A stretch of DNA of 60,053 nucleotides, the filler included. It is 3 parts of 3 records of this genome, joined end to end, with 100 filler letters (N's around TTAATTAATTAA, not from the genome) between each part and the next. Parts side by side here need not be neighbours in the genome. Positions count along the whole stretch, not along the records: positions 29,322 to 51,119 come from SRR31156797_32699; 2 more parts are not named here. The stretch is one strand, 5' to 3'. Below the pieces are notes generated by a model that did not search any database, was not told the origin of the DNA, and saw only the letters and a list, made by a program, of their open reading frames with translations. Shown piece by piece: positions 14,238 to 51,219 of this stretch. The position numbers were made by a program, and so were the translations under genes. Position 1 is the first letter of the stretch; the number at the start of each line of letters is the position of its first letter.

Positions 14238-14250
14238 TGAATCCTCCTCG

Positions 14251-16510: not shown

Positions 16511-18003
16511 CAGGCTCCTTTTGATGCAAACCGCCGTTTAGTAGTTGTTTTGTATTCGACTTCCCCCGCGCCCTGAAGTTCCCGCCGGGCAAAGTCAGCC
16601 AATGCGTGGGCAATACCGGAATCGCCATGGCGCATATTGCCGTCCCGTCCCCGGGTCCGTCCTGTGTCCGGCACCTTGGCAATGCCCTTGACCATCTTGA
16701 TGGCCCGGTGATCGTCCAGGGTATCCCCGTCTTTGGGGATGAACGTGTCTTTGTCTTCAATGGCCGCCTTGAACTTGGGCATGTTCTCCCGGTACCACTC
16801 CTGGGAGAGATGAACCTCAAGTATCCTGGTGGCCCCGTATCTTTGCCGGGCCACCTCAGCCAGGTATTGGCCGTTACCCTTGGCATCAAAGGCTCCGCCC
16901 CGGAACCTGGGAAACAGGTCACACTGATAAAAAAGGATTTGCTTTTGCTGCTCAAAAGGCACATTGCGAAGCTCAAGGACATAGGGTGGCCGGTGTTTTA
17001 ATCCCACTTCCTCCTGGAGAGGCCACTGCACCGACAAGTCCCCATTCCTTGCAAAATCCTCCCCCATATAAACGGGATAGTTCTCCGGCATTTCTTTGAT
17101 CAGGGGCAAAAGGTTCTCTTCACACCACTGCCTGATCTCCGCCTCCCGGATATGCTTGGGCTCATCCACGAACCCCGGTCGACAGGTCAAATTTACCACC
17201 GGGATATCTTCATCCTGGATGGCTTCCAGCATACTCAATGGCAAAAAGGCCCCGCCGCCCTGGGAGGGAATGCAGAACAACTCTTCGTCCGCGCCGTCCC
17301 CGTAAAAATCAATGGTCTGCTGCCGCCATTGGTCTTGTGCTTGCTGGCTCCACTTTTTGCCAAGGCGCATGCAGATCCGTTTGTAAAGACCGGCTTTTAA
17401 TGCATCATCAAAGGTGACACGGTGCAGGCTGTAGGGCTTTTTACCGGCCCGGATATCCTTGATGATCTCGTTGAAATAATTTTCGTCCCCGTCGTGGGTG
17501 GAGATGATCACCACCTGACCGCCCCACATGAGCAGAGCCAGGGCCGCCTTGATTAATTCTTTGAGGTCGTCGTGGAATGCGGCCTCATCAATCACCACCT
17601 TGCCCTGCATCCCCCTCAGATTGGATGGCCGGGAGGAAAGGGCCACGATCTTATGGCCCGATGCAAACTTGATCCGAAAGGTGATGATATCCTTGTCCAC
17701 ATCCTGGAAAATATCTTCCTCAATTTCAGAGGCGGCCTTGTTGTATTGCTTGGCCCAGTCCGCACAATCACCGATAAACTCCTGGGCCATATCCTTGTTG
17801 TACCCCACGTAAAAGACATCCATCCCGCTTCGTGTCGCAGAAAGCAACGCATCCTCGCTTGCTTCTCCCCAGGACAGGCCGATCCGACGTGATTTTTCTA
17901 TCACTTTTACCGGTGATGTATCTGCCTGCCATGTCACCTGGTAAGGCAGCAGCACCATGGGGGTCCGCTGGGAACGGTCTTCTTTAACGTGGGTCAGGGT
18001 CAT
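16507..18003 (-). CDS. Terminase large subunit (Mu gp28-like)
   Basis: 'LLPYQ', 'EKSRRIGLSW', 'VVIDEAAFH', 'G.DFAR.GD', 'RHGD' motifs. Confidence 0.95.
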   Translation of the reverse strand: MTLTHVKEDRSQRTPMVLLPYQVTWQADTSPVKVIEKSRRIGLSWGEASEDALLSATRSGMDVFYVGYNKDMAQEFIGDCADWAKQYNKAASEIEEDIFQDVDKDIITFRIKFASGHKIVALSSRPSNLRGMQGKVVIDEAAFHDDLKELIKAALALLMWGGQVVIISTHDGDENYFNEIIKDIRAGKKPYSLHRVTFDDALKAGLYKRICMRLGKKWSQQAQDQWRQQTIDFYGDGADEELFCIPSQGGGAFLPLSMLEAIQDEDIPVVNLTCRPGFVDEPKHIREAEIRQWCEENLLPLIKEMPENYPVYMGEDFARNGDLSVQWPLQEEVGLKHRPPYVLELRNVPFEQQKQILFYQCDLFPRFRGGAFDAKGNGQYLAEVARQRYGATRILEVHLSQEWYRENMPKFKAAIEDKDTFIPKDGDTLDDHRAIKMVKGIAKVPDTGRTRGRDGNMRHGDSGIAHALADFARRELQGAGEVEYKTTTKRRFASKGAW

Positions 18004-29221: not shown

Positions 29222-29321
29222 NNNNNNNNNNNNNNNNNNNNNNNNNNNNNNNNNNNNNNNNNNNNTTAATTAATTAANNNNNNNNNNNNNNNNNNNNNNN
29301 NNNNNNNNNNNNNNNNNNNNN
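29222..29321. other. Artificial contig spacer
   Basis: N44-TTAATTAATTAA-N44 (stops in all six frames). Confidence 0.99.
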
Positions 29322-29322
29322 G

Positions 29323-29547
29323 CATCCCATTCAGGAAGCATGGCTTGAAGAATACGGCGCACAGTGCGGTTTCTGCTCTCCCGGAATGATCATGACCACC
29401 AAGTATCTGCTGAGCAAAAATTCTGATCCCACTGACGACGAAATCAAGGAAGCCCTCGGCGGCAACCTCTGTATCTGCAACAACTATGAGCACATCATCA
29501 ACGCCGTACGCAGTGCGGCCAAGAAGATGGCAAAGGAGCAGGTCTAA
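29323..29547 (+). CDS. [2Fe-2S] small subunit of a xanthine-dehydrogenase-family enzyme (5'-truncated; not in ORF track)
   Basis: HPIQEAW...AQCGFCSPGMIM...GNLCICNNY...; TAATG-coupled to the large subunit. Confidence 0.92.
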   Translation, partial: HPIQEAWLEEYGAQCGFCSPGMIMTTKYLLSKNSDPTDDEIKEALGGNLCICNNYEHIINAVRSAAKKMAKEQV

Positions 29548-31916
29548 TGGCTGAACTGACATCCATCGGCAAATCTGTCCGCCAAAAGGACGGTCGCGCC
29601 CGCGTCACAGGCGAAGCCAAGTATTATGCCGACTTCATCCTGCCGGGCATGTTGCAGACCCGCATTCTGCGCAGCCCTTATCCGGCAGCCGACATCATTT
29701 CCATCGACACCACCGAGGCCAAAGCTGTTCCGGGCGTCCGTCTCGTCATGACCCATGAGAACTATCCCAAGGCATTCCGTAACACCCTTTATTACGTCGG
29801 AGATCTCGTAGCCGCCGTGGTAGCTGACGATGAGACCATCGCCGAAGAAGCCATGGGACTCATCAAGGTCGAATACGAAAAGAAAAAGTTCGTCGTCAGC
29901 CTTGAAGAGGCAATGAAAAAAGACTCTCCGCAAGTTTTCGAAGGTGTTGACAACTGTCAGGACTGGGCCTTCCATGCTCTGCTCAGTGACCGCGACCCGG
30001 AAACAGGTCTATTCAAGACCAAGACCCCGGCCGAATACAATGGCTTCGGCGACATTGAAAAGGGATTCGAAGAAGCGGACTACATTATCGATCAAAAAGC
30101 GCTTAAATACGCTTACTGCAAGGGACCTGCAATGGAACCTCGCGGCTGCACCGCCGACTTTGATGGCACCAAACTTCACATGTACACCCACTCTCAGGGC
30201 ATGCACGACGAAAAGCTGTGTCTGGCTCAGGCACTCGGCATTCCGTCCAGCATGGTGAACTACGTGGCACCTTTTACCGGCTCCAGCTTCGGTGGCAAAA
30301 ATGCCTTCCCTCTGGACCGCAATATTGCTTCTCACTACCTTTTGGTAGCAAGCCTTGCTTGTCTCGATTTGAAAAAGCCAGTCCATTGCCCATATTCTCG
30401 TGAAGAGGAAATGGTCAGCGGTTGGTCTCGCGGCAGTCAGACCGATGTCAAAATCGGTTTCAAAAAAGACGGCACCCTGACCACCATGGATTTGGAACAC
30501 TGGCAGGAAACAGGTTCCGGCGGCGACAAGTACCCCGCCAAGAACGCCATGCTCGCCACTGGTTCTGTTCTGTACTCTCACAACTGCCAGAACCAACGCG
30601 GCAAAATTCACTACGTGAACACCAACCGTCAGCCTGCTGCGGGTTGGCAGGGTTATGGCGCTCCCGAAGGCACCTTTGCCGTTGAAACCACCATGGACAT
30701 CGCCTCTTACGAATTAGGCATCGATCCCGTGGAACTGCGCAAAATGAACTGCATGCGTGCAGGCGACATCGACTCCGGTTGGGACCCGCTGGTCTACAAA
30801 TCAGCTCTCATTTCCTCCTCCGGTATCCGCGACTGCCTCGACGCTGGCGCAGAAGCTCTGGACTGGAAAAACACATGGCAGCACCCGGATGAAAAAACAG
30901 GTCGTATCCGTCATGGCATGGGCGTGGCCATTTTCGCCATGGGCGCAGGTCGCCCCGGCCCGGGCAACTCGTCCGAAGCTATGGTCAAGATCTACCCTGA
31001 CGGCTCTGCCGCTCTGGTCTGCGCCGTGGCCGATATAGGTCAGGGACAGCACACTGTCCAATGCCAGATCGTAGCTGAAGTGCTCGGCCTGCCTTACAAA
31101 AAAATCGGTCTTGTCTGTCACGACACCGACTCCACCCCCTTCGCCACATTGGTCGCCAACAGCTGCGGCACATGGATTCAGGGTTGGGCCACATACGAAG
31201 CGGCCATTGATGCCAAGCATCAGGTTCTCAAACTCGCAGCAGGCGTCATGGGCGTCTCCGAGACAGAACTGGATATCAACGAAGACGGTATCTTCATGAC
31301 CAATGATCCGAGCAAGGGAGTAACCTTTGCCGAAGCATTCGGTACACGCGGCCATTACGGCGGTATCCATGAAATTACCGGTTATTACGTGAACAACTCT
31401 CCCCATCCCAACGGTCTCAAGGATGGCAAGAAAGATCAGGTCTACATCCCCAAGGAGAAGGGCGCACAGTTCATCTCTCTGGATATCGACACTGAAACCG
31501 GCATGATCGAGAACGCTCGCGTAACCATGGCGCAAAATGTAGGCAAAGCCCTCAACCCGAAAATCGTTGAAGGCCAGCTCTGCACCTCCCGCCACGGCGT
31601 TGATAACGCAATGCTCGGCAACGATTGCATTATCGACAAACGCAACGGCTGGCTGATGACTCCCAACTGGGTTGATTACCGTCACACCACCACCATGGAT
31701 TGCGACGTTGACCCCATTGTCATTGAAAAGCCCGGTGATCCGACCCATCCGTTCGGAGCCACGGCCTGTGGTGAAGGCGCAGCCTGCCCCACTCTGGCCG
31801 CATTCTCCAACGCCATTTACAACGCTATCGGCGTTCGCTTGACCGAAACGCCATACACCCCTGAAAGCATCCTCATTGGCCTGGGCAAAATCAAGGCCAG
31901 AGGGAGGAAGAAATAA
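29547..31916 (+). CDS. Molybdopterin-binding large subunit, xanthine/aldehyde oxidoreductase family
   Basis: 'IGKS....DG...VTG.A.Y', 'LRSP', 'MEPRG', 'SFGGK', 'IGQG', 'NAI.NA.G' motifs. Confidence 0.95.
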   Translation: MAELTSIGKSVRQKDGRARVTGEAKYYADFILPGMLQTRILRSPYPAADIISIDTTEAKAVPGVRLVMTHENYPKAFRNTLYYVGDLVAAVVADDETIAEEAMGLIKVEYEKKKFVVSLEEAMKKDSPQVFEGVDNCQDWAFHALLSDRDPETGLFKTKTPAEYNGFGDIEKGFEEADYIIDQKALKYAYCKGPAMEPRGCTADFDGTKLHMYTHSQGMHDEKLCLAQALGIPSSMVNYVAPFTGSSFGGKNAFPLDRNIASHYLLVASLACLDLKKPVHCPYSREEEMVSGWSRGSQTDVKIGFKKDGTLTTMDLEHWQETGSGGDKYPAKNAMLATGSVLYSHNCQNQRGKIHYVNTNRQPAAGWQGYGAPEGTFAVETTMDIASYELGIDPVELRKMNCMRAGDIDSGWDPLVYKSALISSSGIRDCLDAGAEALDWKNTWQHPDEKTGRIRHGMGVAIFAMGAGRPGPGNSSEAMVKIYPDGSAALVCAVADIGQGQHTVQCQIVAEVLGLPYKKIGLVCHDTDSTPFATLVANSCGTWIQGWATYEAAIDAKHQVLKLAAGVMGVSETELDINEDGIFMTNDPSKGVTFAEAFGTRGHYGGIHEITGYYVNNSPHPNGLKDGKKDQVYIPKEKGAQFISLDIDTETGMIENARVTMAQNVGKALNPKIVEGQLCTSRHGVDNAMLGNDCIIDKRNGWLMTPNWVDYRHTTTMDCDVDPIVIEKPGDPTHPFGATACGEGAACPTLAAFSNAIYNAIGVRLTETPYTPESILIGLGKIKARGRKK

Positions 31917-32899
31917 TGAAACGGTTTAATCATTTTGACGCCACCTCTATTGAAGAGGCGGTCGCTCTCCTGAACGGCAGCGAAGGCCCAGCCTATGTCA
32001 TGGGCGGAGGCAGCGACCTCATGGGTTGTCTCAAGGACAATCTCTGGATGGAGGCCCCCGAGCGGATCGTCAACCTCAAGACCATCCCCGGTCTCAAGGA
32101 AATCCGTGTAGAAAATGACGGTCTGCACATCGGTGCACTTGCTACCCTGACTGAAGTCGCTGAATCCGACTCGGTAAAAGAGCAATGGCCCGGACTGGCC
32201 GAAGCAGCCCGCCGCACAGCATCTCCGCTGTTGCGCAACATGGGCACCATCGCCGGTAACATCTGCCAGGAAAACCGTTGTTGGTACTATCGTTACCCCG
32301 ACAAGATCGGCGGTCGCATTGACTGCGTACGCAAAGGTGGCAAACGTTGTCTGGCCGTTCCCGGCGACCACCGTTTCCACTCCATCTTCGGTGCAGTCAA
32401 CAAATGCATCGCTGTAAACCCAAGCGACACGGCCCCTGCCTTCATCGCTCTGAACGCTATAGTCAAGACAACCAAACGCGAAATCGCCATTGACGACTTC
32501 TTCTCCGCCGAAATGGGCGCACAGTCCACAATTCTGGATCGGGATGAAATAGTCACTGAAATCGTGGTTCCGTTGCCGGAAGCCGGTCCGACCAGTGCTT
32601 TCCGCAAAATTGCCTACCGTAAATCCATCGACTTCGCTCTGGTCAACTGCGCTGCATCTGTCAGCGTGGTCGACGGCAAAATCACCAGTGCACGCATCTG
32701 CCTCAACGGAGTGCATAATAACCCGCGTCGCTGCGAAGCTTCAGAAGAATTGCTCATCGGCAAGGAACTGACTGAAGAACTGGCTCAGGAAGCTGGTAAG
32801 GCCGCTGTTGCCGAAGCCAAACCCCTGCTCCAGAACGGATTTAAGGTACAAATGGCGCAGACCATCGTGGGTGACACCCTGATGGACTGCCTCAAGTAA
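31916..32899 (+). CDS. FAD-binding medium subunit with a [4Fe-4S]-type Cys insert (PaoB/HcrB-like)
   Basis: 'GGSDL', 'RNMGTIAGNICQENRCWYYR...C..KGG..C', 'PSD.APA' motifs. Confidence 0.93.
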   Translation: MKRFNHFDATSIEEAVALLNGSEGPAYVMGGGSDLMGCLKDNLWMEAPERIVNLKTIPGLKEIRVENDGLHIGALATLTEVAESDSVKEQWPGLAEAARRTASPLLRNMGTIAGNICQENRCWYYRYPDKIGGRIDCVRKGGKRCLAVPGDHRFHSIFGAVNKCIAVNPSDTAPAFIALNAIVKTTKREIAIDDFFSAEMGAQSTILDRDEIVTEIVVPLPEAGPTSAFRKIAYRKSIDFALVNCAASVSVVDGKITSARICLNGVHNNPRRCEASEELLIGKELTEELAQEAGKAAVAEAKPLLQNGFKVQMAQTIVGDTLMDCLK

Positions 32900-32913
32900 C
32901 CATTAATACAAGG

Positions 32914-33537
32914 ATGTTTGGCATGCCCCACCAACTCGCCAACGTCTCCGGCGTCATTCTGGCCGCCGGCCAAGCCTCCCGAATGGGTAGGGACAAGTTG
33001 TCCCTGCCCTTCCGGGGACTTCCCATATTACAACATGTGGTGAACGCCGCACGCAACTCCACCCTGCGCGACGTGACCGTGGTTCTGCCCAAGGGATCTG
33101 AGCTACGACGCACAGTGGACCTCTCTGGTTGCAACGTCGTCACCAGTGTTCATCGTGACATGGGCCAGGCCGAGTCTCTCAAGACCGGTCTGCGCTCAGT
33201 CATAGACACTGCCGACGGATGTATGGCCCTGCTGGGAGACCAACCACTGATCACAGCCTCGGCCATCGACATGCTCGTGGGTGCATTCACCCAACAACCC
33301 GAGTGTTGGGTCGCTCCGGTGCAGGAAGGCATGCGCGGTAACCCCATTACCATACCCTCTACATGGTTCCCCAAAGTCTTCGAACTGGAAGGCGACACCG
33401 GTGCACGTCCACTACTCGGCTCTCCGGGACTGGCTCTTCGTCTGGTTCGCATTCACGAAGTCGGACCTTTCATTGATGTGGATACCGAAGAACAATATCA
33501 ACGACTTCTCACCAACTACGGCCAAAAGACCGCTTAG
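32914..33537 (+). CDS. Molybdenum cofactor cytidylyltransferase (MocA-like)
   Basis: 'ILAAG..SRMG..K', 'LGDQP', 'GD.GAR', 'DVDT' motifs. Confidence 0.88.
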   Translation: MFGMPHQLANVSGVILAAGQASRMGRDKLSLPFRGLPILQHVVNAARNSTLRDVTVVLPKGSELRRTVDLSGCNVVTSVHRDMGQAESLKTGLRSVIDTADGCMALLGDQPLITASAIDMLVGAFTQQPECWVAPVQEGMRGNPITIPSTWFPKVFELEGDTGARPLLGSPGLALRLVRIHEVGPFIDVDTEEQYQRLLTNYGQKTA

Positions 33538-33546
33538 GAGCACATT

Positions 33547-34353
33547 ATGAGTGCCATTCAAACCCCAACAATCACCATTCGCGGCGCAGGCGACCTCGCT
33601 ACAGGCGTTGCCCTTCGACTCTATCAGGCCGGGCTGACCCGACTCCTGCTCTTGGAAACGGCCAACCCCCTTGCCGTCCGTCGAACCGTGGCTTTTTCCG
33701 AAGCCATATACCACGGTGAAATGACCGTTGAAGGGATCAAAGCCACACGTATTTCTTCGCCTGATTTCATTGAAAAAGCATGGGACAACGGCACGATTCC
33801 TGTTCTCGTTGACCCGGAAGCCTCCTCTTTGAATCAGGTAAAACCTGACGTACTGGTGGATGCCATCCTTGCCAAACGCAACATCGGGACAACCATGGAT
33901 CAAGCTCCGCTGGTCATCGGCCTCGGACCGGGATTCACAGCAGGACAAGATGTCCACAGAGTCGTTGAGACCAAACGCGGTCATCACCTCGGACGCGTCA
34001 TCACCGAAGGGCCTGCGGCTGCGAACACGGGTGTCCCCGGCGTAATTGACGGATTTTCCATAGAACGCGTTTATTGGGCCGAGCATGAAGGCACTTTCAC
34101 AACCCCTTACGACATCGGCCAACTGATAAAAAAAGGCGATATCATCGGTTCTGTCGACGACACCCCGGTTGTTGCAGCCCTGTCCGGCGTTATTCGAGGT
34201 CTGCTCAGAAACAACACTCCGGTCGTCAAACGCACAAAACTCGGAGATGTGGACCCCAGAGGAACCATTTCATACTGCGGAGAAACTTCGGACAAGGCTT
34301 TGTCCATCGGCGGCGGCGTTCTCGAAACCATTTGCGCACAACTTTTCATCTGA
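33547..34353 (+). CDS. yqeB: Selenium-dependent molybdenum cofactor biosynthesis protein YqeB
   Basis: 'RGAGDLATG', 'AVRRTVAF', 'DAILAKRN.GT', 'IGLGPGF.AG', 'ET.RGH.LGR', 'SDKA..IGGGVLE' motifs. Confidence 0.93.
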   Translation: MSAIQTPTITIRGAGDLATGVALRLYQAGLTRLLLLETANPLAVRRTVAFSEAIYHGEMTVEGIKATRISSPDFIEKAWDNGTIPVLVDPEASSLNQVKPDVLVDAILAKRNIGTTMDQAPLVIGLGPGFTAGQDVHRVVETKRGHHLGRVITEGPAAANTGVPGVIDGFSIERVYWAEHEGTFTTPYDIGQLIKKGDIIGSVDDTPVVAALSGVIRGLLRNNTPVVKRTKLGDVDPRGTISYCGETSDKALSIGGGVLETICAQLFI

Positions 34354-34360
34354 GGCACGC

Positions 34361-35191
34361 ATGAACGGGACCGTAACCCTTAGCGCTTGTGCCGCACTCA
34401 CCTCGCCGGAACACCGGCTTATCACCGTCATCGGAGCGGGAGGGAAGACCTCTCTCCTTCATTGGATAGCCAAAAGCAGAATTTCTGCAGGGCAACGGGT
34501 GGTCATTACAACGACCACCAAGATCTTCCCGCTCCATGACGTAGATACCATTCTAATGACAGATGGCCCGGATTTTTTGAATAGGCTACGCCAGGCATTG
34601 ACGAAAAGTTCCTGTGTTATCGCTGCTCAAAGATTTGATACAAAAACCGGAAAACTCATTGGATTAGACGCTGAAAGTGTTGACGCTCTTCACTACTCTG
34701 AGATTGGAGACGCCATTTTGGTTGAAGCCGATGGTGCAGCTCGAAAACCACTCAAGGCACCAGCAAATCACGAACCGGTCATCCCGGTTACATCTGATAT
34801 CTGTGTCGGTGTCATGGGACTCGATGCTGTAAATCAGCCCTTTTCCGAAGACATTGTTCACCGATCCAATATTTTCGCTGAAATCACCGACATTTCTTTT
34901 GGAGAAGCAATAACCCCAGACCACTTGATAAAGATTGCCACCTCCAATGATGGGCTGTTCAAAGGCTGTCCCCAAAACTGTGAACAAATCGTACTGCTCA
35001 ACAAAATGGATATTCCCGGCGGAAAGGCACAGGTTGCAGAATTTACTGCCAAATTGAACGGAAGTGCCACAACGTCGACTCTTTCATGGTTTGCAGGCAG
35101 TTGTCGCCAACATTGCTTGCACCGCATCAATTATCAAAGCGTGATGTCCTGCGCTAAAAATAACCGTCTTGAACATTCATCTCAGTTCTGA
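34361..35191 (+). CDS. yqeC: Selenium cofactor biosynthesis protein YqeC
   Basis: 'GAGGKTS', 'TTTTKI', 'VEADGA..KPLKAP..HEPVIP' motifs; start reassigned to ATG 34361. Confidence 0.92.
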   Translation: MNGTVTLSACAALTSPEHRLITVIGAGGKTSLLHWIAKSRISAGQRVVITTTTKIFPLHDVDTILMTDGPDFLNRLRQALTKSSCVIAAQRFDTKTGKLIGLDAESVDALHYSEIGDAILVEADGAARKPLKAPANHEPVIPVTSDICVGVMGLDAVNQPFSEDIVHRSNIFAEITDISFGEAITPDHLIKIATSNDGLFKGCPQNCEQIVLLNKMDIPGGKAQVAEFTAKLNGSATTSTLSWFAGSCRQHCLHRINYQSVMSCAKNNRLEHSSQF

Positions 35192-35207
35192 AAGGTTGGA
35201 GGGAACC

Positions 35208-36788
35208 ATGTCCAAACAAAAGAGTCCGCATACCCCGCTTCCAATGTGTCCGCCTGACAAAGGCGGCGTCTGTACCATATGTTTCTTCGGCGCACTCTCC
35301 ATTATTCTGGCCGCGTGCATCCCTCTCCTGATGTACCCTGAAGCCGGAGAAAGAATCATCAACTCGATGTTCCAATTCGTCACCGTAAAAATGGGGTGGC
35401 TCTACATGCTGTTCGGAGCCGGTACTTTTACCCTGCTCATGTGGTTCGCCTTTGGCCCCTTCAGTCACAAACGCCTTGGTGATAAGGTTGAGTACTCTAC
35501 CTTTTCCTGGATAGGCATGCTCTTCTGTGCGGGCGTAGGCGCTGGCATCATGTTCGGCGGGTCCATTGATTGGGCCTATTATGCAGCCTACCCAATGCAC
35601 GGCGAACCTGCCGGTTCACTCGAAGCCTACGAATGGGGCAGTGCGTACGGCATGTTCCACTGGGGACCAATCTGCTGGTCCATCTACGCGGTGTTGGCCG
35701 TGCCCATTGGCTATAGTTACTACGTCAAACGAGTTCCCATCCTGAACATTTCCCAAGCCTGTACAGGACTGCTCGGCGACAAGGTCAACGGCTGGCAAGG
35801 CAAAGTTATCGACATCCTTTTCATGACCGGACTTGTGGCCGGCTCAGCCACAGCACTTGGACTGGGTATTCCCATCGTGGCCGCAGCCATTGCCTCCGTT
35901 GCCGGCATTGAACATTCATTCTGGTTGGAATTCGGCACATTGCTTCTTGTCACCTCCATCTTCTGTGTATCAGCCAGCCTCGGCCTGAAAAAAGGACTGA
36001 GTAAACTTTCAGACTTCAACGTCATGATAGCCATGGCGCTCCTTCTGTTCGTTTTCATCGTCGGGCCCACGGTCTTTTTGACCGACATGGCCATCACGTC
36101 GTTAGGCCTCATGTATTCAAAACTCATTACCATGGCCACGTCGATGGACCCCATGGATTCCGTAGGATTCACCAAGGACTGGACTGTTTTCTATTACGCA
36201 TGGTTCGTGGCATACGCCCCATTCATGTCCCTGTTCATCGCCAAAATATCTCGTGGTCGCACAGTCCGCGAGGTCGTGCTTGGCCCGGTCCTCATCGCTT
36301 CACTGGGATGTGGCTGTTTCTATCTCGTCTTCGGCAACTTCGGCCTGTACCTCCAACTCACCGGCCAACTGGACGTGGTGAGCATGGTCAAAACCGTCAA
36401 AGGCGCTACAGCCATTATGGCCATTGCGGACTTCATCCCCATGGCCTCGCTCTATAAAGTTGTCTTTGCCGGTGTCACCGCCATCTCCATGGCAACGACC
36501 TTTGACGCAGTTTCATTCGCTCTGGCCGCCACCACCACACTCAAGCTCACTCCTGATGAAGAGCCTGCACGCTGGAACCGCCTGTTTTGGGCTTTGTCTC
36601 TTGGCTTGGTCCCCACAGGGATCATGCTCATCGACGGACCGCTATCCGTTCTGCAAACCGCTTCAATTGTAGTGGGGCTGCCCGTACTTGGCGTCGTCAC
36701 CATCGGAGTTGCCGCATTCCTCAAGGAGTACCGGCAAACCGGCTGGGTGGAATACGACGACGCAGCATGCGCTCCGCGCGACATATAA
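35208..36788 (+). CDS. BCCT-family transporter
   Basis: 'EYSTFSW..MLFCAG.G', 'FHWG...W..Y', 'WTVFY.AW', 'F.A.IS.GRT.RE' motifs; GGAGG RBS before ATG 35208. Confidence 0.93.
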   Translation: MSKQKSPHTPLPMCPPDKGGVCTICFFGALSIILAACIPLLMYPEAGERIINSMFQFVTVKMGWLYMLFGAGTFTLLMWFAFGPFSHKRLGDKVEYSTFSWIGMLFCAGVGAGIMFGGSIDWAYYAAYPMHGEPAGSLEAYEWGSAYGMFHWGPICWSIYAVLAVPIGYSYYVKRVPILNISQACTGLLGDKVNGWQGKVIDILFMTGLVAGSATALGLGIPIVAAAIASVAGIEHSFWLEFGTLLLVTSIFCVSASLGLKKGLSKLSDFNVMIAMALLLFVFIVGPTVFLTDMAITSLGLMYSKLITMATSMDPMDSVGFTKDWTVFYYAWFVAYAPFMSLFIAKISRGRTVREVVLGPVLIASLGCGCFYLVFGNFGLYLQLTGQLDVVSMVKTVKGATAIMAIADFIPMASLYKVVFAGVTAISMATTFDAVSFALAATTTLKLTPDEEPARWNRLFWALSLGLVPTGIMLIDGPLSVLQTASIVVGLPVLGVVTIGVAAFLKEYRQTGWVEYDDAACAPRDI

Positions 36789-36817
36789 TCAATTATTCGC
36801 ATCATATCGAGGTTATC

Positions 36818-37843
36818 ATGAAAACCATGCACGTTGAAAAAGCCGTGGGTACCGTCTTGTGTCAAGATATCACCCGCATCATACCCGGCGGAGAAAAAGG
36901 CCCTGCATTCCGCCGCGGCCATGTGGTTACCGAAGCTGACATCCCAACACTGTTGGATATCGGCAAAGAGCACCTCTATGTATTTGATCCTCAGGACGGG
37001 TATGTCCATGAGGATTATGCCGCACGACGCATAGCCGAAGCCGCCGCCGGTCCGGGCATTGAGCTGAGCACTCCGGTGGAAGGCAAAATCACTTTGCGCG
37101 CCACCCATGACGGCCTGCTCGACATCAACACTGACACCCTGTTCAAACTGAACTCGGTCAAAGATGTCATCTTCGGCACCATCCATACCAATCAACTGGT
37201 CCGCAAAGGACGCGCCATGGCCGGTACCCGTGTCATTCCATTGGTCGTCCCCGAAGATATCGTTGCCGAGGCTGAAGCAGTACTTCGCGAAAACGCACCA
37301 CTTATTCAGGTCCGCCCGCTCAAGCCGTGTCGTATCGGCATCGTCACCACGGGCAGTGAGGTTTACAATGGCCGCATTGAGGACAAGTTTGGTCCGGTTA
37401 TCCGCAAAAAATTCAAAGGATATGGTTCAACCACGATCGGACAGAAGCTCGTTTCCGATGACCCGGAGATGACCAAGGGAGCCATTCTGGATTTCATAGA
37501 AAACGGGGCCGACTTTGTGGTTGTCACAGGAGGCATGTCCGTGGACCCGGACGACCAAACGCCCACTTCCATCCGCATGACCGGGGCCGAAGTCGTGACT
37601 TACGGCGCGCCCACCTTTCCCGGAGCCATGTTCATGCTCGCCCGCCTCGGAGACGTCCCTGTCGTCGGTCTTCCCGGTTGCGTCATGTACTATCGCGCCA
37701 GCATTTTCGACCTGATCATACCGCGCATTCTGGCAGGAAAGGACGTGACACGCGAAGACATCATTAACCTCGGCCACGGTGGATTCTGTGAAGGGTGTGA
37801 GACCTGCCGCTACCCCGTGTGCAGCTTCGGTAAAGGGGCATAA
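36818..37843 (+). CDS. MoeA-like molybdopterin-binding protein
   Basis: 'TTGSEVY.GRIED.FGP', 'TGGMSVDPDD.TP', 'GLPGCVMY', C-terminal CxxCxxCxxPxC. Confidence 0.88.
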   Translation: MKTMHVEKAVGTVLCQDITRIIPGGEKGPAFRRGHVVTEADIPTLLDIGKEHLYVFDPQDGYVHEDYAARRIAEAAAGPGIELSTPVEGKITLRATHDGLLDINTDTLFKLNSVKDVIFGTIHTNQLVRKGRAMAGTRVIPLVVPEDIVAEAEAVLRENAPLIQVRPLKPCRIGIVTTGSEVYNGRIEDKFGPVIRKKFKGYGSTTIGQKLVSDDPEMTKGAILDFIENGADFVVVTGGMSVDPDDQTPTSIRMTGAEVVTYGAPTFPGAMFMLARLGDVPVVGLPGCVMYYRASIFDLIIPRILAGKDVTREDIINLGHGGFCEGCETCRYPVCSFGKGA

Positions 37844-37845
37844 AA

Positions 37846-38823
37846 ATGCAGAACGTCTTTGCATCCATCATGGAGGCCTTGGGAAAAGGCCAATCCGTTG
37901 TCAGGGTTTCTGTCATGAAAAGCAACGAGTCTACTCCGCGCTCTGCCGGGGCGGTTATGGCTGTCTTCGAAGATGGTTCCACCGCCGGCACCATTGGCGG
38001 TGGGTCTGTTGAAAATGCAAGCCACATGGCCGCAAAAAAAATGCAGCCCGGAACTTCAACTGTTCGTGAATTCGATCTCACCAACGCAGATGCCGCCAAC
38101 CTTGGCATGGTCTGCGGCGGCAACATGACCGTCCTGTTGGACTCACTGTTGCCTAATGACGCGAATATTACGCTTATCAAAAAAATGCTCGCCCATTGGC
38201 AAGCAGGCGAACATCGTCTGCTCGTGACCTCGTTGTCCACATCAGGCACAGTGACCAATCGTGAAATCTTCCCCTTGGGCGGGACTTTTCCCGATACAGT
38301 TCGCACACCGATGACCACGGAAACACCTGACTCAATCCAGTTCGTAGAGCCAATTCACATCCCGGAAACAGTCCATTTCATCGGCGCAGGCCACGTGGCC
38401 AATGCCACAGCAAAACTGGCTGCTTTTGTCGGTTTTCGCGTTGTAGTGGTGGATGACCGTGAAGAATTCGCCAATGCCATTCGATATCCCGAGGCCAGTG
38501 AAATTCGAGTCGAAAAGTCCCTGACAAAGTGCCTGCCGGAATCATTGGACAAAAGTGATTTTATCGTCATTATGACACGCGGTCATATGCATGATCGCGA
38601 TGTTCTGGCCCAAGCCTTGAGAACAAAAGCGGGCTATATCGGCATGATTGGCAGCAAAAAGAAAAAAGCGGCAGTGTATAAATCACTTCTCGAAAGCGGA
38701 TACACGCAAACCGCTCTCGACGCGGTTCACTGCCCTATCGGTTTGACCATCGACGCAGACACACCGGAAGAAATAGCCATCAGCATCATGGGCGAACTCA
38801 TTCAAAGCAGAAAACAAAGCTAA
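37846..38823 (+). CDS. XdhC/CoxI-family maturation factor
   Basis: 'STPR..GA.M', 'GTIGGG..E', 'GMVCGG', 'GAGHV', 'YIGMIGS', 'PIGL.I.A.TPEEIA.SI' motifs. Confidence 0.92.
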   Translation: MQNVFASIMEALGKGQSVVRVSVMKSNESTPRSAGAVMAVFEDGSTAGTIGGGSVENASHMAAKKMQPGTSTVREFDLTNADAANLGMVCGGNMTVLLDSLLPNDANITLIKKMLAHWQAGEHRLLVTSLSTSGTVTNREIFPLGGTFPDTVRTPMTTETPDSIQFVEPIHIPETVHFIGAGHVANATAKLAAFVGFRVVVVDDREEFANAIRYPEASEIRVEKSLTKCLPESLDKSDFIVIMTRGHMHDRDVLAQALRTKAGYIGMIGSKKKKAAVYKSLLESGYTQTALDAVHCPIGLTIDADTPEEIAISIMGELIQSRKQS

Positions 38824-40642: not shown

Positions 40643-41704
40643 TCAGGACGTAATTTCCTTATTTTCACCAGCCTCATGTTCCTTGATAACCTTGATCACA
40701 TATTCACCGAGGTGTTGAGCTGAACTGATAAAACCAAGCACCTGAAAGAGACGTTGTGCGCCGAAACGACTGGTTACGCCCTGACGACGCAATTCAATAA
40801 ACCGTATTTCGATATTGCTCACGGCATCCTCCAAACGTTTCGTATCATGAGGAACCCCCATTCCGATGGCACGTAATGCGGTCGTCGTTGATCGCGTCAA
40901 TTCTGTCAGTTCCGGGGCAAGGATGATATCAAAGCCCACGCCTTCCACCTGGTTCAACAAGGTGAGCATGGCCTGCAACCGTTCCAGCACAGAACGAAAA
41001 ACACTAACCTGTGTCGAAAGCAGGTTGACGTCATCCCTGAAAAATCGTCGTTCCATGGAAAAAACCTTGTGGAACATCTCCTTATTCTTCTCGGTCGTGC
41101 CCGCAAAATCATCAAACAAATCAGGATCAGTCTTTTGTTGCAGAGAAAGAAAATTATTCATGAGCAACGTATACCGGACTGCCAATTGCCCGTATTGATG
41201 TTCCAGCCGCTCACGCAATGCGGCCCCGGCCCTTCTAGGCCATAAGACCACGGAAACAAGAAAGGCACAGGCTACGCCAACGCCGATCTCAGCCACTCTG
41301 GACAGGGTAAACAGAATACGATGTTCGTCTGTAAGACTCGTCAGATATACGATGGCCACAGTAATGGCCGCCATTCGAAAACGCACATTATACCGCGTAA
41401 GGTAGGCACACACCCCGGTACCGACAAAGATACCCAATAGAGTATACATGGGCGTTGCCGGGAAAATAAGGATAAGCAAAATGCCCATCCCCGCACCAAT
41501 AGCGGTTCCGGTAAAACGATACAGACACATGTGAATGGAGTCCGCCACATGGACCTGCATGACAATAACCGTGGTAATCACAGCCCAGTAAGCATATGGC
41601 ACCCCCACAAGACCGGATACGACATATGCGAGCACGCTCGCCACGCCGACCTTGATACCATGCCGGATGTGACTACTTGCAATAATTCTTTTGATGTAGG
41701 ACAT
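40643..41704 (-). CDS. FUSC/aromatic acid exporter family membrane protein
   Basis: 'YWAVIT..IVMQ', 'R..GT.IGA', 'R..EI..G' motifs. Confidence 0.88.
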   Translation of the reverse strand: MSYIKRIIASSHIRHGIKVGVASVLAYVVSGLVGVPYAYWAVITTVIVMQVHVADSIHMCLYRFTGTAIGAGMGILLILIFPATPMYTLLGIFVGTGVCAYLTRYNVRFRMAAITVAIVYLTSLTDEHRILFTLSRVAEIGVGVACAFLVSVVLWPRRAGAALRERLEHQYGQLAVRYTLLMNNFLSLQQKTDPDLFDDFAGTTEKNKEMFHKVFSMERRFFRDDVNLLSTQVSVFRSVLERLQAMLTLLNQVEGVGFDIILAPELTELTRSTTTALRAIGMGVPHDTKRLEDAVSNIEIRFIELRRQGVTSRFGAQRLFQVLGFISSAQHLGEYVIKVIKEHEAGENKEITS

Positions 41705-41865
41705 TTTTTTCGTCGGATTCGGGAATTATGGGCAGCGAAAATCGCCAACCGTTGCAAACAACCGACGCACGGCTCTCTCACATTGCGGCCAGAGGGTCAA
41801 CCATTAAAGATTCTACAATATATGTTTTCCGCACGATTGACACACAGAAAAAAAAGAACTTCGGA

Positions 41866-43260
41866 CTACTTAAAACTCCCGGCATCCACATCCAACCGCT
41901 TGAGAATTTTTTGCAAAGCGACTCTGGACAAACCGCTTTGGCGTGCTGCTTTTGAAACATTGCCACGTGTACCAAAGAGCAATTCCTCGACATACGTACG
42001 GGTAAAATCGTCCACAACTTTTTCCTTGGCATCCTTGTATGGCGTTAAGCCCTGCGATTCTTCGCCGGGAAGCCCATCAAGCCCCTCCACGAGACGAAGA
42101 TGGACCAATTCCAAAGACTCACTGGAAGAAAACACTGCCAGACGACGAATGAAATTCTGCAATTCACGTACATTTCCGGGCCAACTTTTTGTAGTCAAAT
42201 AGGCCACGGCGTCTGGTGCCATGGTCTTTGGATTGACCTTCATTTCCTCGCAGGAAATAGTCAAAAAATGACGGGCGAGAATAGCAATATCATCACTGCG
42301 GTCCCGCAGAGCCGGCACATTCAGGTTCAAAACATTGAGACGATAATACAGGTCTTCCCGAAAACTACCGTCCTTGATCTTCTCCTCAAGGGGTTGGTTG
42401 GTGGAAGCAAGGATACGTACATCCACCGGAATAGTCTTGCTGGAACCGACAGGACGAATTTCTCCTTCCTGCAACGCTCGCAGCAACTTGGTCTGGATTC
42501 CCGGAGAAATGTCACCGATTTCATCGAGAAGCAGCGTACCGCCGTCCGCTGAAACAAAAATCCCCTTGCGATCCCGGTCTGCGCCAGTGAACGCCCCCTT
42601 GACGTGACCGAACAATTCGCTTTCCAGCAATTGATCAGGAATGGCCGGACAATTGACCGTCAGCAAAGGCTTTCTGCTCCGTCCGCTCAACTGATGGATG
42701 GTTCTGGCCACCAACTCTTTGCCAGTCCCGGATTCTCCTCGAATCAAAACGGTATATTCAGACTCGGCCACGGCTGCCACGCCGTCCTTAAGTCGACGTA
42801 TGGCTAGGCTGTCACCCACAAATTCATTGGGACCGATCTGCTTGGCAAGCAACTCCTGAAGGCGTGCATTCTCCCCGAGAAGGCGACTGCGTTCAAGTCC
42901 TCGCTCTACAACCTGAAACAGGTCTTTTGGCTCCACCGGTTTTGTCAGGAAATCATAGGCCCCGATTTTCAACGCATCCACTGCGGTCTCCACGGTCCCA
43001 TATGCCGTCAACATGACCACACTCATGTCCGGGTGCATTTCTCTGGCTCGACGAAGCAATTCAACCCCATCCATGCTCGGCATGTTCAGATCGGTCAACA
43101 TCAGGCCAAAGGCATCGTTTTCCAATGCAGCAATAGCCTCTGGCCCGGAAAGCACGGCCATAATATGTTCATCAGGATACTGTCGCCCCAACAAACGTGC
43201 GAGTCCTGTGGCAAAATCCTTTTCATCATCAACGATGAGTATACCTATGGCGTTTGTCAT
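41866..43260 (-). CDS. NtrC-family sigma54-dependent response regulator
   Basis: Receiver domain; GESGTGKE, ESELFGH.KGAFTGA, WPGNVREL; Fis-type HTH. Confidence 0.96.
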   Translation of the reverse strand: MTNAIGILIVDDEKDFATGLARLLGRQYPDEHIMAVLSGPEAIAALENDAFGLMLTDLNMPSMDGVELLRRAREMHPDMSVVMLTAYGTVETAVDALKIGAYDFLTKPVEPKDLFQVVERGLERSRLLGENARLQELLAKQIGPNEFVGDSLAIRRLKDGVAAVAESEYTVLIRGESGTGKELVARTIHQLSGRSRKPLLTVNCPAIPDQLLESELFGHVKGAFTGADRDRKGIFVSADGGTLLLDEIGDISPGIQTKLLRALQEGEIRPVGSSKTIPVDVRILASTNQPLEEKIKDGSFREDLYYRLNVLNLNVPALRDRSDDIAILARHFLTISCEEMKVNPKTMAPDAVAYLTTKSWPGNVRELQNFIRRLAVFSSSESLELVHLRLVEGLDGLPGEESQGLTPYKDAKEKVVDDFTRTYVEELLFGTRGNVSKAARQSGLSRVALQKILKRLDVDAGSFK

Positions 43261-45686
43261 TGTTCGCCCCGTGTCGAATCGCTAGTGACCGGAAGATGCA
43301 CTGTAAACACCGCACCGTTGTCGTTCTCCATCTCAATGGTTCCTCCGATTTCCTGAGCCAGCCCATAGACAACGGCTAATCCAAGACCAGTCCCTTTACC
43401 GACTTCCTTGGTGGAGAAAAACGGATCGAACACCTTCAACATATCCCCTTCCGGGATACCCGGCCCATTATCAGCCACCCGAATATCAATGGTCTCGGAG
43501 TCAGATTTATAATGAGCTGAAACGGTAATATACCCAACCTTTTTCACCACTGCATCCAATGCGTTTTTGAGCAAATTGGTAAGAATCTGCTCCACAGCCT
43601 GTTCATTGGTAACGATGGAGGGCAGGCCATCCTCAACCTTCGGCACAACCTCAACGCCCTTCTTCTCTGCCTGCACCCGGAAAATATTAATGGCATCGGC
43701 GACAACCCTGCCCACATCCAGATCAACCAACTCCGACTTCTTGGGTCGAGCAAAGTTGAGTAAATCCTGCAAAACATTCTCGGCCTGCGAAGCGTGCTTG
43801 ATAATAACCTCGGCATCAGAGGATATTTCCTGTCGAGACTCAGCTCCTCGCAACAACTCGGCATAACACTTGATAACGCCCAACGGATTATTGATTTCGT
43901 GGGCCAATCCTGCGGCCAACTGCCCAACTGTTGCCATCTTTTCACTCTGCTGCATGGAAACAAGCATCCGCTTTTCCTGCGTCACATCACGCACGTAAAC
44001 AACACCATTGGCTTCTTGAGCAACCCCTTCCGCCACAGGAAAAACACTGATTGAAAAAGACCTGCCATCTGCGGTTTGCACCTCGCGGGCCATGGTCTCC
44101 CCGTGTTCCAATGAAGACTTCAACGGACAATTTTCGAACACCCCCCCTTGTCTGAACAAAGTGGAACAGGCAGTATCATTCACGGCTCCGCCAAAGGACA
44201 CACACAAGGAACGAGCGGCTTCGTTAGCCAAAACAACACCGCAAGCACCATCCATAAGCAAAAGAGGATCACTGATGCCTTCAACAATCGCCTGAAGCAT
44301 ATCTTTTTGACGAAGAAGGTTATGCAGGGCCGCCAAATTCTCCATGGCAATGCCAAGCTGTTGACCCAACGCCCGCAAAACGTTCCGATCCTGATTCGTA
44401 ATGATGGTTCCTTCATCCCAGATCAAACACAAAAGGCCTTCGGACGAGGCATCACTGGCCCACACCGGAATGTACGCCTTGCCCGGTTCGTAATATGGTT
44501 CAACCTCGGTAATAATCTCTTTCCAGTTAGAGGGGAGATCGGGCTTTGGAGTCCCTTCTGGCCACGTATAATATGTCTGAGAGGCGAGCATACAGATAAA
44601 ACCACCGAGACTGGCTCTGAATCGCTGCACGATAAGAGGCAGAGAATGCTGCCACATCTGCCGTCGAGTGTGACTTCTGTTCAAACCATCAAGAAGCTGA
44701 ACAAACAAACCGACATCCGAACGCCGTTCCTCGGCCTCCAGTTTCAATTCACCGGTACGGACCTCGACCATCTGCTCGAGATTCTCCGAGTGCTGACGGA
44801 GTTGATAGTTCATCTCATGAACATGGTCGCCAAGTTCTTCAAGCCCTTGGACCACCTCTTCAATTTCATCGACATTTTCTAATTTTTCCATGAAGCCGAG
44901 TTCTTCATCTTCTTGAAAAAGCTTGCGGAACTTATCCGTCAGTCTGTGCAAGTTGGTCATGATAAGGCGGTTGAAAAACATCTGAACCAACGCAAAGAAA
45001 AGTAGCATGCCACCGCCATAAAGTGCGGCATACCCGATGGTGGCTTCACGAATCTTCCCGACAGCCCCATCAATGGGAACGCCCACAACGACCAAACCGG
45101 CAATATCACCCAGTGTATGACCGAACCCTCGCTCCGTTCCATACCGTTCGAGCAGGACCGGGGGAGAATCTTCCGGCACGCCATGGCATGTCATGCACGA
45201 CTTCTTGAATTCCACAGGACGCGCCTTAACAAAAAACTCCTTATTCTCAATCTTGCGGTATCCTTCCCAATATTCCTTACCGGGATTTTTCCTGAAATAT
45301 GTCAAAAGATCACGTTCGCTATCCTTGATTTCAAAAAGTGGATTACGCGCATTATCCGCCACTCGACGATAGTAATACTCCGAATGACGCAGATTCAGTC
45401 GATCCATGATGGCTCGAGAAATATACGATGAAGACATGGCCTCGATAACAAACTCCCCTTCCGGCAAAGTCTGATACATTTTCGGCCTGAGTATTTCCCG
45501 CACATAGCCTTGCACACTCGACACCTGATTCAGGACAAGATCGGCCTTATCCTTGACCTGAGTGTCCAGAAGTGAGCTGAGATGGAAATACAAACTCGAA
45601 GCGAAAAACAAACCCAGCAAAAAGACAATGGTTCCCAATCCGAGAAGAAACTTGGCCTGAAGATTTTTTGGTCCGAAATTACCCAT
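43257..45686 (-). CDS. Sensor histidine kinase with periplasmic c-type heme (DUF3365-like) domain, GAF-like and PAS regions
   Basis: Two TM helices flank a domain with CMTCH; H-box [10 protein letters not shown]1, F and G2 boxes. Confidence 0.92.
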
Positions 45687-51119: not shown

Positions 51120-51219
51120 NNNNNNNNNNNNNNNNNNNNNNNNNNNNNNNNNNNNNNNNNNNNTTAATTAATTAANNNNNNNNNNNNNNNNNNNNNNNNN
51201 NNNNNNNNNNNNNNNNNNN
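51120..51219. other. Artificial contig spacer
   Basis: N44-TTAATTAATTAA-N44. Confidence 0.99.

Follow-up and report, generated by a model that had tools for sequence, protein, structure and literature searches.

Results

A nine-gene operon combines a Mo hydroxylase, a selenium maturation set, and a BCCT carrier

The window analyzed here, a stretch of DNA of 60,053 nucleotides, contains at positions 29323-38823 an operon of nine genes that encodes a molybdenum (Mo) hydroxylase of the xanthine dehydrogenase (XDH) family together with cofactor maturation proteins and a transporter of the BCCT family. Listing of open reading frames and family scans revealed that all nine genes lie on the plus strand and either overlap or are spaced by 2-29 bases, and gene identities were assigned from matches to Pfam and NCBIfam profiles with curated cut-offs. 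The first gene (29323..29547) is the 3' part, 74 codons, of the gene for a [2Fe-2S] small subunit (Fer2_2, 89 bits), and it is followed by the genes for a molybdopterin-binding large subunit of 789 amino acids (29547..31916; Ald_Xan_dh_C, MoCoBD_1, and MoCoBD_2) and an FAD subunit of 327 amino acids (31916..32899; FAD_binding_5 and CO_deh_flav_C). The operon continues with genes for a MocA-like nucleotidyl transferase (32914..33537; PF12804, 122 bits), YqeB (33547..34353), YqeC (34361..35191; PF19842, 140 bits), the BCCT transporter (35208..36788; 526 amino acids from the ATG, with an alternative TTG start at 35169), a MoCF_biosynth-domain protein of 341 amino acids (36818..37843; PF00994, 86 bits over residues 174-304), and a putative chaperone of the XdhC family (37846..38823). 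An earlier reading of this DNA, made from the sequence alone (the sequence-only reading), had described nine closely spaced genes on one strand with the transporter embedded among the cofactor genes, and this arrangement is present as it was stated. The gene called "MoeA-like" in that reading, however, has to be renamed, as it carries the MoCF_biosynth domain alone and so is not a full MoeA.

The window consists of three concatenated contigs, joined at 29222-29321 and at 51120-51219 by linkers that each comprise 44 N, TTAATTAATTAA, and 44 N. Because these linkers are assembly junctions, the DNA to the left of 29222 is not the true upstream region of the operon, and gene neighborhoods that span either linker are artificial. 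Further, the operon begins at the first base of the middle contig, and the [2Fe-2S] gene is thus incomplete. As a near-identical stand-in for genome-level checks on the operon, we used a complete 3.7-Mb genome (referred to here as G001), whose sequence runs colinear with the middle contig (98.4% nucleotide identity) and encodes a Mo subunit 100% identical to that in the window. The full FeS gene in G001 encodes 163 amino acids (L008:16716-17207, where L008 is the G001 locus), and upstream of it lie a gene for an EamA-family transporter and then one for a sigma54-dependent activator with a PAS domain. The complete unit in G001 therefore reads sigma54 PAS activator, sigma54 promoter, EamA, FeS-Mo-FAD, MocA, YqeB, YqeC, BCCT, MoCF, and XdhC.

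The Mo enzyme belongs to a distinct clade of the XDH family, as judged by sequence

The three enzyme subunits matched PF01315, PF02738, PF20256, PF01799, PF00941, and PF03450, all above cut-off, which places the enzyme among the Mo hydroxylases. The Mo subunit reached no NCBIfam equivalog cut-off, the best models being the alpha subunit of 4-hydroxybenzoyl-CoA reductase (4-HBCR; 362 bits against a cut-off of 995) and XdhA (362 bits against 780). In a search of the PDB, 4-HBCR alpha was the best whole-length match (240 bits), and the L and M subunits of nicotinate dehydrogenase (Ndh; 3hrd_A and 3hrd_B) scored 116 and 138 bits; for the C-terminal half, NdhM (3hrd_B) was the best match, with 140 bits versus 114 for 4-HBCR. 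The Mo subunit is thus about equidistant from nicotinate dehydrogenase and 4-HBCR. A search of 5.8 billion proteins returned 73 clusters at ≥59% identity, followed by a drop to ≤48%, and all of the names in this group, which we refer to as family A, are generic. Its named cultured carriers are Maridesulfovibrio ferrireducens, Pseudodesulfovibrio tunisiensis, Desulfotalea psychrophila, and Desulfocicer niacini. A scan of metagenomes added only two further members among 80 loci, the others being paralogues at ~30% identity. The sequence-only reading had singled out the grouping of the large subunit as informative; by cut-offs, PDB matches, and the protein-cluster search, it groups with no characterized enzyme, and family A appears to be a distinct, uncharacterized clade of the XDH family.

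Near the active site, family A has the motifs THSQG, SSFGGK[N/I]A (with a 4-residue insertion), GWSRGS, GWQGYGAPEG, SCGTW, and ACGEGAACP, which are common to all subclades, including those linked to BCCT and those linked to MttB (see below), and are unlike those of Ndh-like enzymes. The C-terminal GE motif contains Glu-743, which corresponds to the Glu of NdhM and 4-HBCR, does not vary among the 17 aligned family members, and is the presumed catalytic base. Two cysteines also stand out: Cys-540 (31164-31166, in SCGTW) is found in 15 of 17 aligned family A sequences and Cys-741 (31767-31769, in ACGEGAACP) in 17 of 17, and Ndh-like enzymes have Arg and Val at the respective positions. The residue after FGGK, Asn-252 (30300-30302), corresponds to a substrate-binding Glu of bovine XDH; the BCCT clade and Bilophila have Asn here, whereas Ile is found in MttB-linked members and Val in the outlier, L046, and this difference may mark a difference in substrate between subclades.

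The medium subunits of 5y6q, 4-HBCR, and PaoABC bind a [4Fe-4S] cluster. The FAD subunit of the operon contains a Cys-rich insertion of ~47 residues that aligns with these proteins (5y6q_B, 1rm6_B, and PaoABC), and its best PDB matches are the medium subunits of aldehyde oxidases. All 22 family members compared share five cysteines within the insertion (Cys-117, Cys-122, Cys-137, Cys-145, and Cys-164), and the Ndh-like FAD subunit has no such loop. The Cys pattern fits 5y6q_B better than 4-HBCR, one Cys position of which is unmatched. The insertion is best described as a [4Fe-4S]-type loop and a putative cluster site.

These features bear on the direction in which the enzyme works. If it ran in reverse, low-potential electrons would pass via the [4Fe-4S] and FAD centers to reduce or dehydroxylate an imported, oxidized onium heteroaromatic compound, which would act as an electron sink, as in 2,8-dioxopurine dehydrogenase and 4-HBCR. 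The rank of 4-HBCR alpha as the best whole-length match and the presence of the Cys-rich loop in 4-HBCR beta, among others, agree with such a role; a reductive selenium-dependent enzyme of the XDH family is described in the available portion of 10.1101/2025.04.24.650524, and a single-step module equipped with an importer plus another transporter would suit a respiratory acceptor as well as a donor. However, the same loop occurs in oxidative aldehyde oxidoreductases (5y6q_B and PaoB), to the first of which the Cys pattern is closer, and the score with the NCBIfam 4-HBCR model is far below its cut-off. Further, the cluster contains no CoA ligase or other activating enzyme, and no neighboring gene indicates a candidate oxidized betaine. 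We consider a reductive role unlikely.

The operon carries maturation genes for a predicted selenium-containing Mo cofactor

In enzymes of the XDH family, the sulfido or selenido ligand of Mo serves hydride transfer at an sp2 C-H bond. The operon was described as selenium-linked in the sequence-only reading, and this holds: YqeB scored 343 bits with TIGR03309 (cut-off 220) and YqeC 182 bits with TIGR03172 (cut-off 73). The presence of selD, proposed there as a check, was confirmed in G001 (TIGR00476, 342 bits), where yqeB is present as a single copy, located in the operon. The selD gene of G001 (G001:C1:3423424-3424353, L050) has one in-frame TGA, as expected for a selenocysteine-containing SelD. 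All of the selenium-dependent Mo hydroxylases named in the available portion of 10.1101/2025.04.24.650524 act on N-heteroaromatic rings.

With regard to the remaining maturation proteins, TIGR03310 was the best model for the MocA-like protein (152 bits, below the cut-off of 186), and this protein probably makes the cytosine dinucleotide form of the Mo cofactor. In the MoCF_biosynth-domain protein, we found no full set of MoeA domains, the N-terminal half had no family match, and MoeA-type models scored ~40 bits; it is a probable molybdopterin-binding maturation factor. The XdhC-family protein has both XdhC_CoxI and XdhC_C domains (PF02625 and PF13478) and exceeds the cut-off of NF045664 (365 versus 350 bits), and it is predicted to be a chaperone for insertion of the Mo cofactor.

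The carrier has an onium-type pocket related to that of DddT

The BCCT domain is of full length (PF02028, 431 bits over positions 2-484 of 485), and the score with TIGR00842 was 407.6 bits against a cut-off of 407.55. The closest PDB match was DddT (428 bits), followed by CaiT (239 bits) and BetP (178 bits). The protein is not assignable to CaiT, as NF002887 gave 389 bits against a cut-off of 541. G001 has four BCCT genes in all, three of them outside the operon. In the available portion of PMC13270143, DddT is the Na+-coupled importer of dimethylsulfoniopropionate (DMSP) of Psychrobacter sp. D2 (PDB 21ff), its A99P, W105A, and S204A mutants lost DMSP transport, and two other DddT homologues do not carry DMSP; for this last reason, homology to DddT does not fix the substrate either way.

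We mapped the list of DddT pocket residues from the same source by hand onto the PDB-search alignment, keeping DddT numbering. Trp-140, Trp-320, and Tyr-324, which form the cation-π box, are kept, as are the entry residues Tyr-112, Trp-313, Phe-316, and Tyr-317 and also Gly-101; four positions are changed (W321F, A99G, W105G, and S204A). This pattern is common to 11 of the 12 BCCT carriers of the clusters, the other one, L038, keeping Ser-204 and having other residues at two sites. With the aromatic box intact, the pocket remains suited to an onium group, and DMSP is probably not the substrate, as three positions required for its transport differ. The protein cannot be equated with DddT, given the A99G, W105G, and S204A changes and a cluster in which no ddd genes were found.

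This evidence also bears on whether the operon could be a module for a DMSP-type sulfonium compound, reducing, for example, dimethylsulfoxonium propionate to DMSP, which an MttB-type system would then demethylate in Desulfobacterales. DddT is the closest characterized BCCT protein by a wide margin (428 versus 239 bits for CaiT), and the habitats are marine, seawater, aquaculture, and sediment ones: sequencing runs that hold at least one fifth of the sampled words of this DNA include aquaculture, seawater, and marine metagenomes (runs X13-X18, with small shares of sampled words, were left out of the habitat evidence). Such a role is nevertheless highly improbable, as the role of the Mo=S/Se ligand is hydride transfer from C-H bonds rather than the transfer of an oxygen atom from S-oxides, ddd lyase genes are not found nearby, three sites needed for DMSP transport are altered, and the two tested DddT homologues do not carry DMSP.

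A sigma54 promoter and the gene order are conserved in close relatives

Between the activator and EamA genes of G001 lies TGGCATATCCATTGCT, with the -24/-12 spacing typical of sigma54 promoters. A sigma54 promoter (TGGCAY-N5-TTGCT) was found between the activator and the first operon gene in all 15 intergenic regions examined. A strict TGGCAC pattern detected no site in L008, where the promoter was found by reading the intergenic DNA and with the looser pattern. Further, a TGAGTC-N6-GACTCA palindrome is present ~110 bp upstream of the sigma54 site in 8 of the 15 regions. Scans of the operon for sigma70 promoters and terminators gave hits at the level of chance (7 versus 6.3 expected and 13 versus 9.8 expected, respectively). 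In the marine-sediment metatranscriptome X18, contigs are ~94% identical over FeS-Mo-FAD, with pieces over most of the other genes and some parts without cover; this is a weak hint that the operon of a relative is transcribed in situ, DNA carry-over being possible.

A scan for family A limited to one genome per species yielded 26 loci, all in Desulfobacterota-type records. Seventeen are close (69-85% identity; 14 evaluable for BCCT and 16 for EamA), and nine are deeper (49-66%). The BCCT gene occupies the same place, between yqeC and the MoCF gene, in 12 of the 14 evaluable close loci, at ≥69% identity and in several genera, and this recurrence implies that the arrangement is not due to chance. 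EamA lies ahead of the FeS gene in 15 of the 16 evaluable close loci. Two close loci (L028 and L032) keep the enzyme without the BCCT gene, and none of the nine deeper loci has one in the locus DNA examined. The BCCT neighborhood, the conservation of which the sequence-only reading had proposed to test, is thus conserved among close relatives and missing from the deeper orthologous clusters, and the objection raised in that reading, absence of BCCT from orthologous clusters, applies to the deeper clusters and not to most of the close ones. In a tree from a quick maximum-likelihood search, the BCCT-linked sequences form one Desulfovibrionaceae clade with Bilophila as its sister and the others as a basal grade, and the grouping follows taxonomy. 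The genes that flank the close loci vary among genomes, which indicates that the module is self-contained.

Individual loci show further variation. In two Maridesulfovibrio loci (L026:18580-20724 and L045:18264-20408), the cluster is directly followed by a gene for a methyl-accepting chemotaxis protein with a dCache_1 domain, which may be a chemoreceptor for the same solute. In L028, a GltD-like Fe-S flavoprotein (13589-14824; Fer4_20 and Pyr_redox_2) is encoded right after the FAD gene and is followed by EamA and a TRAP system; the flavoprotein could connect the enzyme to NAD(P)H. The Mo gene match of L036 is split by ~1.2 kb (4680-5910), and the BCCT match of L030 consists of two overlapping pieces (15646-17263); these broken matches could reflect an insertion, a masked stretch, or a frameshift.

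Deeper members of family A are associated with MttB-type demethylases and nicotinate genes

A gene for an MttB-family methyltransferase is present at five of the nine deeper loci (L037, L041, L043, L047, and, 4 kb further on in its genome, L042) and also on the metagenome contig L064. These MttB homologues reach no curated cut-off (277-313 bits versus 525 for the trimethylamine model). A corrinoid protein is encoded at L037, L041, L042, and L043, a methyltetrahydrofolate:corrinoid methyltransferase at L037 and L042, and an HTH-cupin regulator at L037, L041, and L047. The corrinoid protein of L037 is nearest to models for glycine-betaine corrinoid proteins, below their cut-offs. The importers of the deeper loci are of the Liv-type ABC, TRAP, or MFS type, and no clue to a ligand emerged when the TRAP and Liv-type binding proteins from sister loci were searched against the PDB.

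In one genome (G402), the family A cluster and MttB lie in a one-strand stretch of ~40 kb with a second, Ndh-like enzyme of the XDH family (372 and 255 bits on 3hrd_A and 3hrd_B), an enamidase orthologue (2vun, 472 bits), a ferredoxin-domain protein, and a second yqeB along with a yqeC and a MocA-like gene. Contig L064 carries on one strand, up to the contig end, genes for an HTH-cupin regulator, MttB, a Liv ABC transporter, family A, an MMSDH-like aldehyde dehydrogenase, AA_synth, and an Ndh-like enzyme. Family A thus adjoins a nicotinate module in two loci, with enamidase in G402. The Ndh/enamidase module is kept in four genomes that have family A and MttB, and it adjoins family A only in G402. 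The family A protein of G402 shares 95% identity with a protein that NCBI assigns to Desulfocicer niacini. This name is a homotypic synonym of Desulfococcus niacini, a species that the title of the 1983 paper presents as a nicotinic-acid-degrading sulfate reducer. An enamidase was detected in four of five MttB-type genomes and in none of five BCCT-type genomes (G001 included), against a background of 66 of 401 in the phylum sample. Searches for MttB in G001 and five further BCCT-type genomes found none, and no MttB-system gene was found in the window. These genome counts are small and track phylogeny. Because no MttB (six genomes) and no enamidase (five genomes) was found, the hydroxylation step appears to stand alone in BCCT-type genomes. 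The catabolic pathway proposed in the sequence-only reading is accordingly not borne out for this organism, in which we see a self-contained, one-step module with two transporters.

The nicotinate module of sulfate reducers is itself conserved (L053, which is G402:C1:2717000-2736990, L060, L061, L062, and L064), in the order TRAP, Ndh-like FeS/FAD/Mo, enamidase, 540-amino acid ferredoxin-domain protein, PRK04334-like protein, AA_synth (PF06684), and MMSDH-like CoA-acylating aldehyde dehydrogenase. The last of these enzymes could convert 2-formylglutarate to glutaryl-CoA in a variant of the Eubacterium barkeri pathway. We also considered whether family A is the nicotinate dehydrogenase of sulfate reducers and rejected this, as a better Ndh candidate adjoins the enamidase in four genomes.

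Two alternatives for the substrate arise from these neighborhoods. In the first, the enzyme uses an unmethylated heterocycle (nicotinate, picolinate, or similar) in all family members, EamA or another carrier imports it, and the BCCT protein is either a co-regulated importer of osmolytes or imports a precursor that an unrecognized enzyme demethylates. MttB acting on an N-methylpyridinium would yield such a ring; the deeper loci are served by TRAP or Liv-type importers and not by BCCT; L028 and L032 keep the enzyme and lack the carrier; and the three other BCCT genes of G001 suggest that the family is used there for osmolytes. Against this alternative stand the position of the BCCT gene between yqeC and MoCF in 12 of 14 evaluable loci and several genera, and its own conserved variant of the pocket; moreover, MttB was not found in any of the six BCCT-type genomes searched, and a separate Ndh-like enzyme covers nicotinate where the pathway exists. 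We regard it as quite unlikely.

In the second alternative, the enzyme is an oxidoreductase for a betaine-type aldehyde, for example oxidizing betaine aldehyde to glycine betaine, and in the deeper clade the product is demethylated by an MtgB-like MttB. The match of XdhC to a model named "XdhC family aldehyde oxidoreductase maturation factor," the aldehyde oxidase medium subunits that are nearest to the FAD subunit, and the leaning of the L037 corrinoid protein toward glycine-betaine models are in line with this, and the chemistry would be tidy, with the Mo enzyme acting before MttB on a product that remains a quaternary amine. On the other hand, the Mo subunit is nearer to nicotinate dehydrogenase and 4-HBCR than to aldehyde oxidoreductases, no choline-oxidizing enzyme is present in any cluster, the proximity of nicotinate genes in G402 and L064 has no explanation in this scheme, and we know of no report of free betaine aldehyde as an environmental solute. 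Selenium maturation genes, too, are known with N-heteroaromatic hydroxylases, as far as the available portion of 10.1101/2025.04.24.650524 goes. In our view, this alternative is very improbable.

Other features of the window

On the minus strand downstream of the operon, the middle contig encodes a FUSC/ArAE-family membrane protein, a sigma54 response regulator, and a histidine kinase with a Tll0287-like domain (40643-45686); these genes are not kept beside the operon in other genomes. The third contig (51220-60053) has a G+C content of 33-37% compared with ~55% in the rest of the window, a composition that could reflect an island, a mobile element, or foreign DNA.

Discussion

A candidate one-step hydroxylation of an imported pyridinium betaine

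The reading that we favor, with a probability of roughly 0.4, is that the operon encodes a one-step, selenium-dependent hydroxylation of an imported betaine of the N-methylpyridinium type, the product of which is exported. The selenium-dependent Mo hydroxylases named in 10.1101/2025.04.24.650524, which act on N-heteroaromatic rings, and three clues from the gene neighborhoods lead to this substrate class. A carrier with a cation-π box and an MttB-type demethylase in relatives point to an N-methyl onium group, the TRAP importers of relatives point to a carboxylate, and the adjacency of family A to nicotinate genes points to a pyridine ring; their combination suggests a trigonelline- or homarine-class N-methylpyridinium carboxylate. 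The N-methylated zwitterion guessed at in the sequence-only reading gains independent support from the onium box and from the MttB and nicotinate neighbors of relatives. That G001 and its kin lack follow-up enzymes suggests import, a single hydroxylation, and export of a pyridone by EamA.

In this scheme, the PAS-domain enhancer-binding protein would switch on the sigma54 promoter (both are seen in G001, just off the contig), and the DddT-like BCCT carrier would bring the substrate in. The MocA-like protein would make the cytosine dinucleotide form of the cofactor, YqeB and YqeC with SelD would supply the labile selenium ligand, and XdhC and the MoCF protein would handle cofactor insertion. 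The heterotrimeric XDH-family enzyme, with its 2Fe-2S subunit, Mo subunit, and FAD subunit with the extra [4Fe-4S]-type loop, would then hydroxylate the ring C-H next to the nitrogen in an N-methylated heteroaromatic carboxylate. The two low-potential electrons released could pass along the FeS/FAD/[4Fe-4S] chain to a ferredoxin-type carrier and on to sulfate respiration, and the pyridone product would exit via the EamA transporter.

A wider version of this proposal, which we consider doubtful, assigns to family A the central step of an anaerobic route, not described so far, for pyridinium betaines such as trigonelline and perhaps homarine. In Desulfovibrionaceae, the DddT-like carrier and the hydroxylase would make an abundant osmolyte of marine and plant origin into a two-electron donor for sulfate respiration, with the pyridone being excreted; in Desulfobacterales, an MttB-type demethylase would act, and the ring would enter an enamidase-type nicotinate pathway for complete oxidation.

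Several observations weigh against the proposal of a pyridinium betaine. The substrate assignment draws on sequence and context. The nearest characterized relative of the carrier imports DMSP and not a pyridinium betaine, and the closest matches to the Liv-type binding proteins encoded at the deeper loci are amino-acid binders. The [4Fe-4S]-type loop and the likeness to 4-HBCR would be equally compatible with a reductive enzyme. In loci that combine family A with nicotinate genes, there is a separate and better Ndh candidate, which leaves the role of family A there unexplained, and a pyridone product would presumably be a poor substrate for MttB. The enrichment of enamidase follows taxonomy and rests on five genomes, and the family tree comes from a quick search only. 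Finally, yqeB was not found in three metagenome-assembled genomes (of completeness that is not known) of one BCCT subclade, and selenium may thus not be universal in family A.

Trigonelline and homarine are abundant osmolytes. The only homarine pathway described in PMC13236597 is an oxygen-dependent oxygenase route, and the available portion of that text contains none of the terms "anaerob," "molybd," or "BCCT." The operon is a compact candidate for the conversion of such osmolytes in anoxic sediments, comprising a single regulator, a single importer, and a single enzyme plus a second transporter. If the reading is correct, it would extend the small group of known selenium-dependent Mo hydroxylases by a new substrate class and a new subfamily, link these enzymes for the first time to BCCT carriers and MttB demethylases, and imply that sulfate reducers harvest electrons from osmolytes through a single hydroxylation. 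Even if the guess at the substrate is wrong, family A is a well-defined, uncharacterized enzyme family with a conserved, dedicated carrier. Among the literature matches listed, we found no paper that joins yqeB, yqeC, and BCCT; likewise, none was found that joins MttB, xanthine dehydrogenase, and corrinoid, and matches for trigonelline and MttB were unrelated, judging by their titles and abstracts.

Comparison with known systems

Nicotinate dehydrogenase of E. barkeri (NdhFSLM; 3hrd), a selenium-dependent Mo hydroxylase, resembles the operon enzyme in its XDH-family membership and in having its FeS, FAD, and Mo centers on separate proteins, and the operon likewise carries selenium maturation genes. 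However, its Mo chain is split into L and M, whereas in the operon it is a single chain of 789 amino acids that is only remotely similar (116 and 138 bits); 3hrd_C lacks the [4Fe-4S]-type loop that is present in the FAD subunit here; and the motifs GWQGYGAPEG and ACGEGAACP of family A contrast with AMRGFGAPQ and GVGEPALIP of Ndh-like enzymes. The context differs as well, with genes of the nicotinate pathway in the one case and a BCCT carrier in the other. Given the remote score and that no enamidase was found in G001, the operon enzyme does not qualify as nicotinate dehydrogenase.

Like the operon enzyme, 4-HBCR of Thauera aromatica (1rm6) has an FAD subunit with a Cys-rich insertion. The operon enzyme cannot be assigned to 4-HBCR, as the scores for the beta and gamma subunits (156 bits against a cut-off of 405 and 80 against 258), like that for alpha, are well below cut-off, and the aromatic CoA-ester context of 4-HBCR is absent from the operon. 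Selenium genes are, to our knowledge, not a feature of 4-HBCR. The 2,8-dioxopurine dehydrogenase and the clostridial selenium-dependent XDH and purine hydroxylases share the YqeB, YqeC, and SelD set and an anaerobic host with the operon enzyme. The purine-pathway genes ygeW, ygeY, ygfK, ssnA, and hyuA were not seen in the cluster, and the Se_dep_XDH and Se_sel_red_Mo models were far below cut-off. Further, 2,8-dioxopurine dehydrogenase is without an FAD domain, according to the available portion of 10.1101/2025.04.24.650524, whereas the operon enzyme has an FAD subunit and is accompanied by a BCCT transporter.

With respect to the associated proteins, the non-pyrrolysine MttB systems of the MtgB/MtgC type have their counterpart in the MttB, corrinoid protein, and methyltetrahydrofolate:corrinoid methyltransferase of the deeper family A loci, and none of these genes was found in G001. 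DddT belongs to the same BCCT branch as the operon carrier, which here sits among genes for Mo cofactor maturation. Overall, we conclude that the operon enzyme represents a new subfamily of, and a new genetic context for, selenium-dependent Mo hydroxylases.

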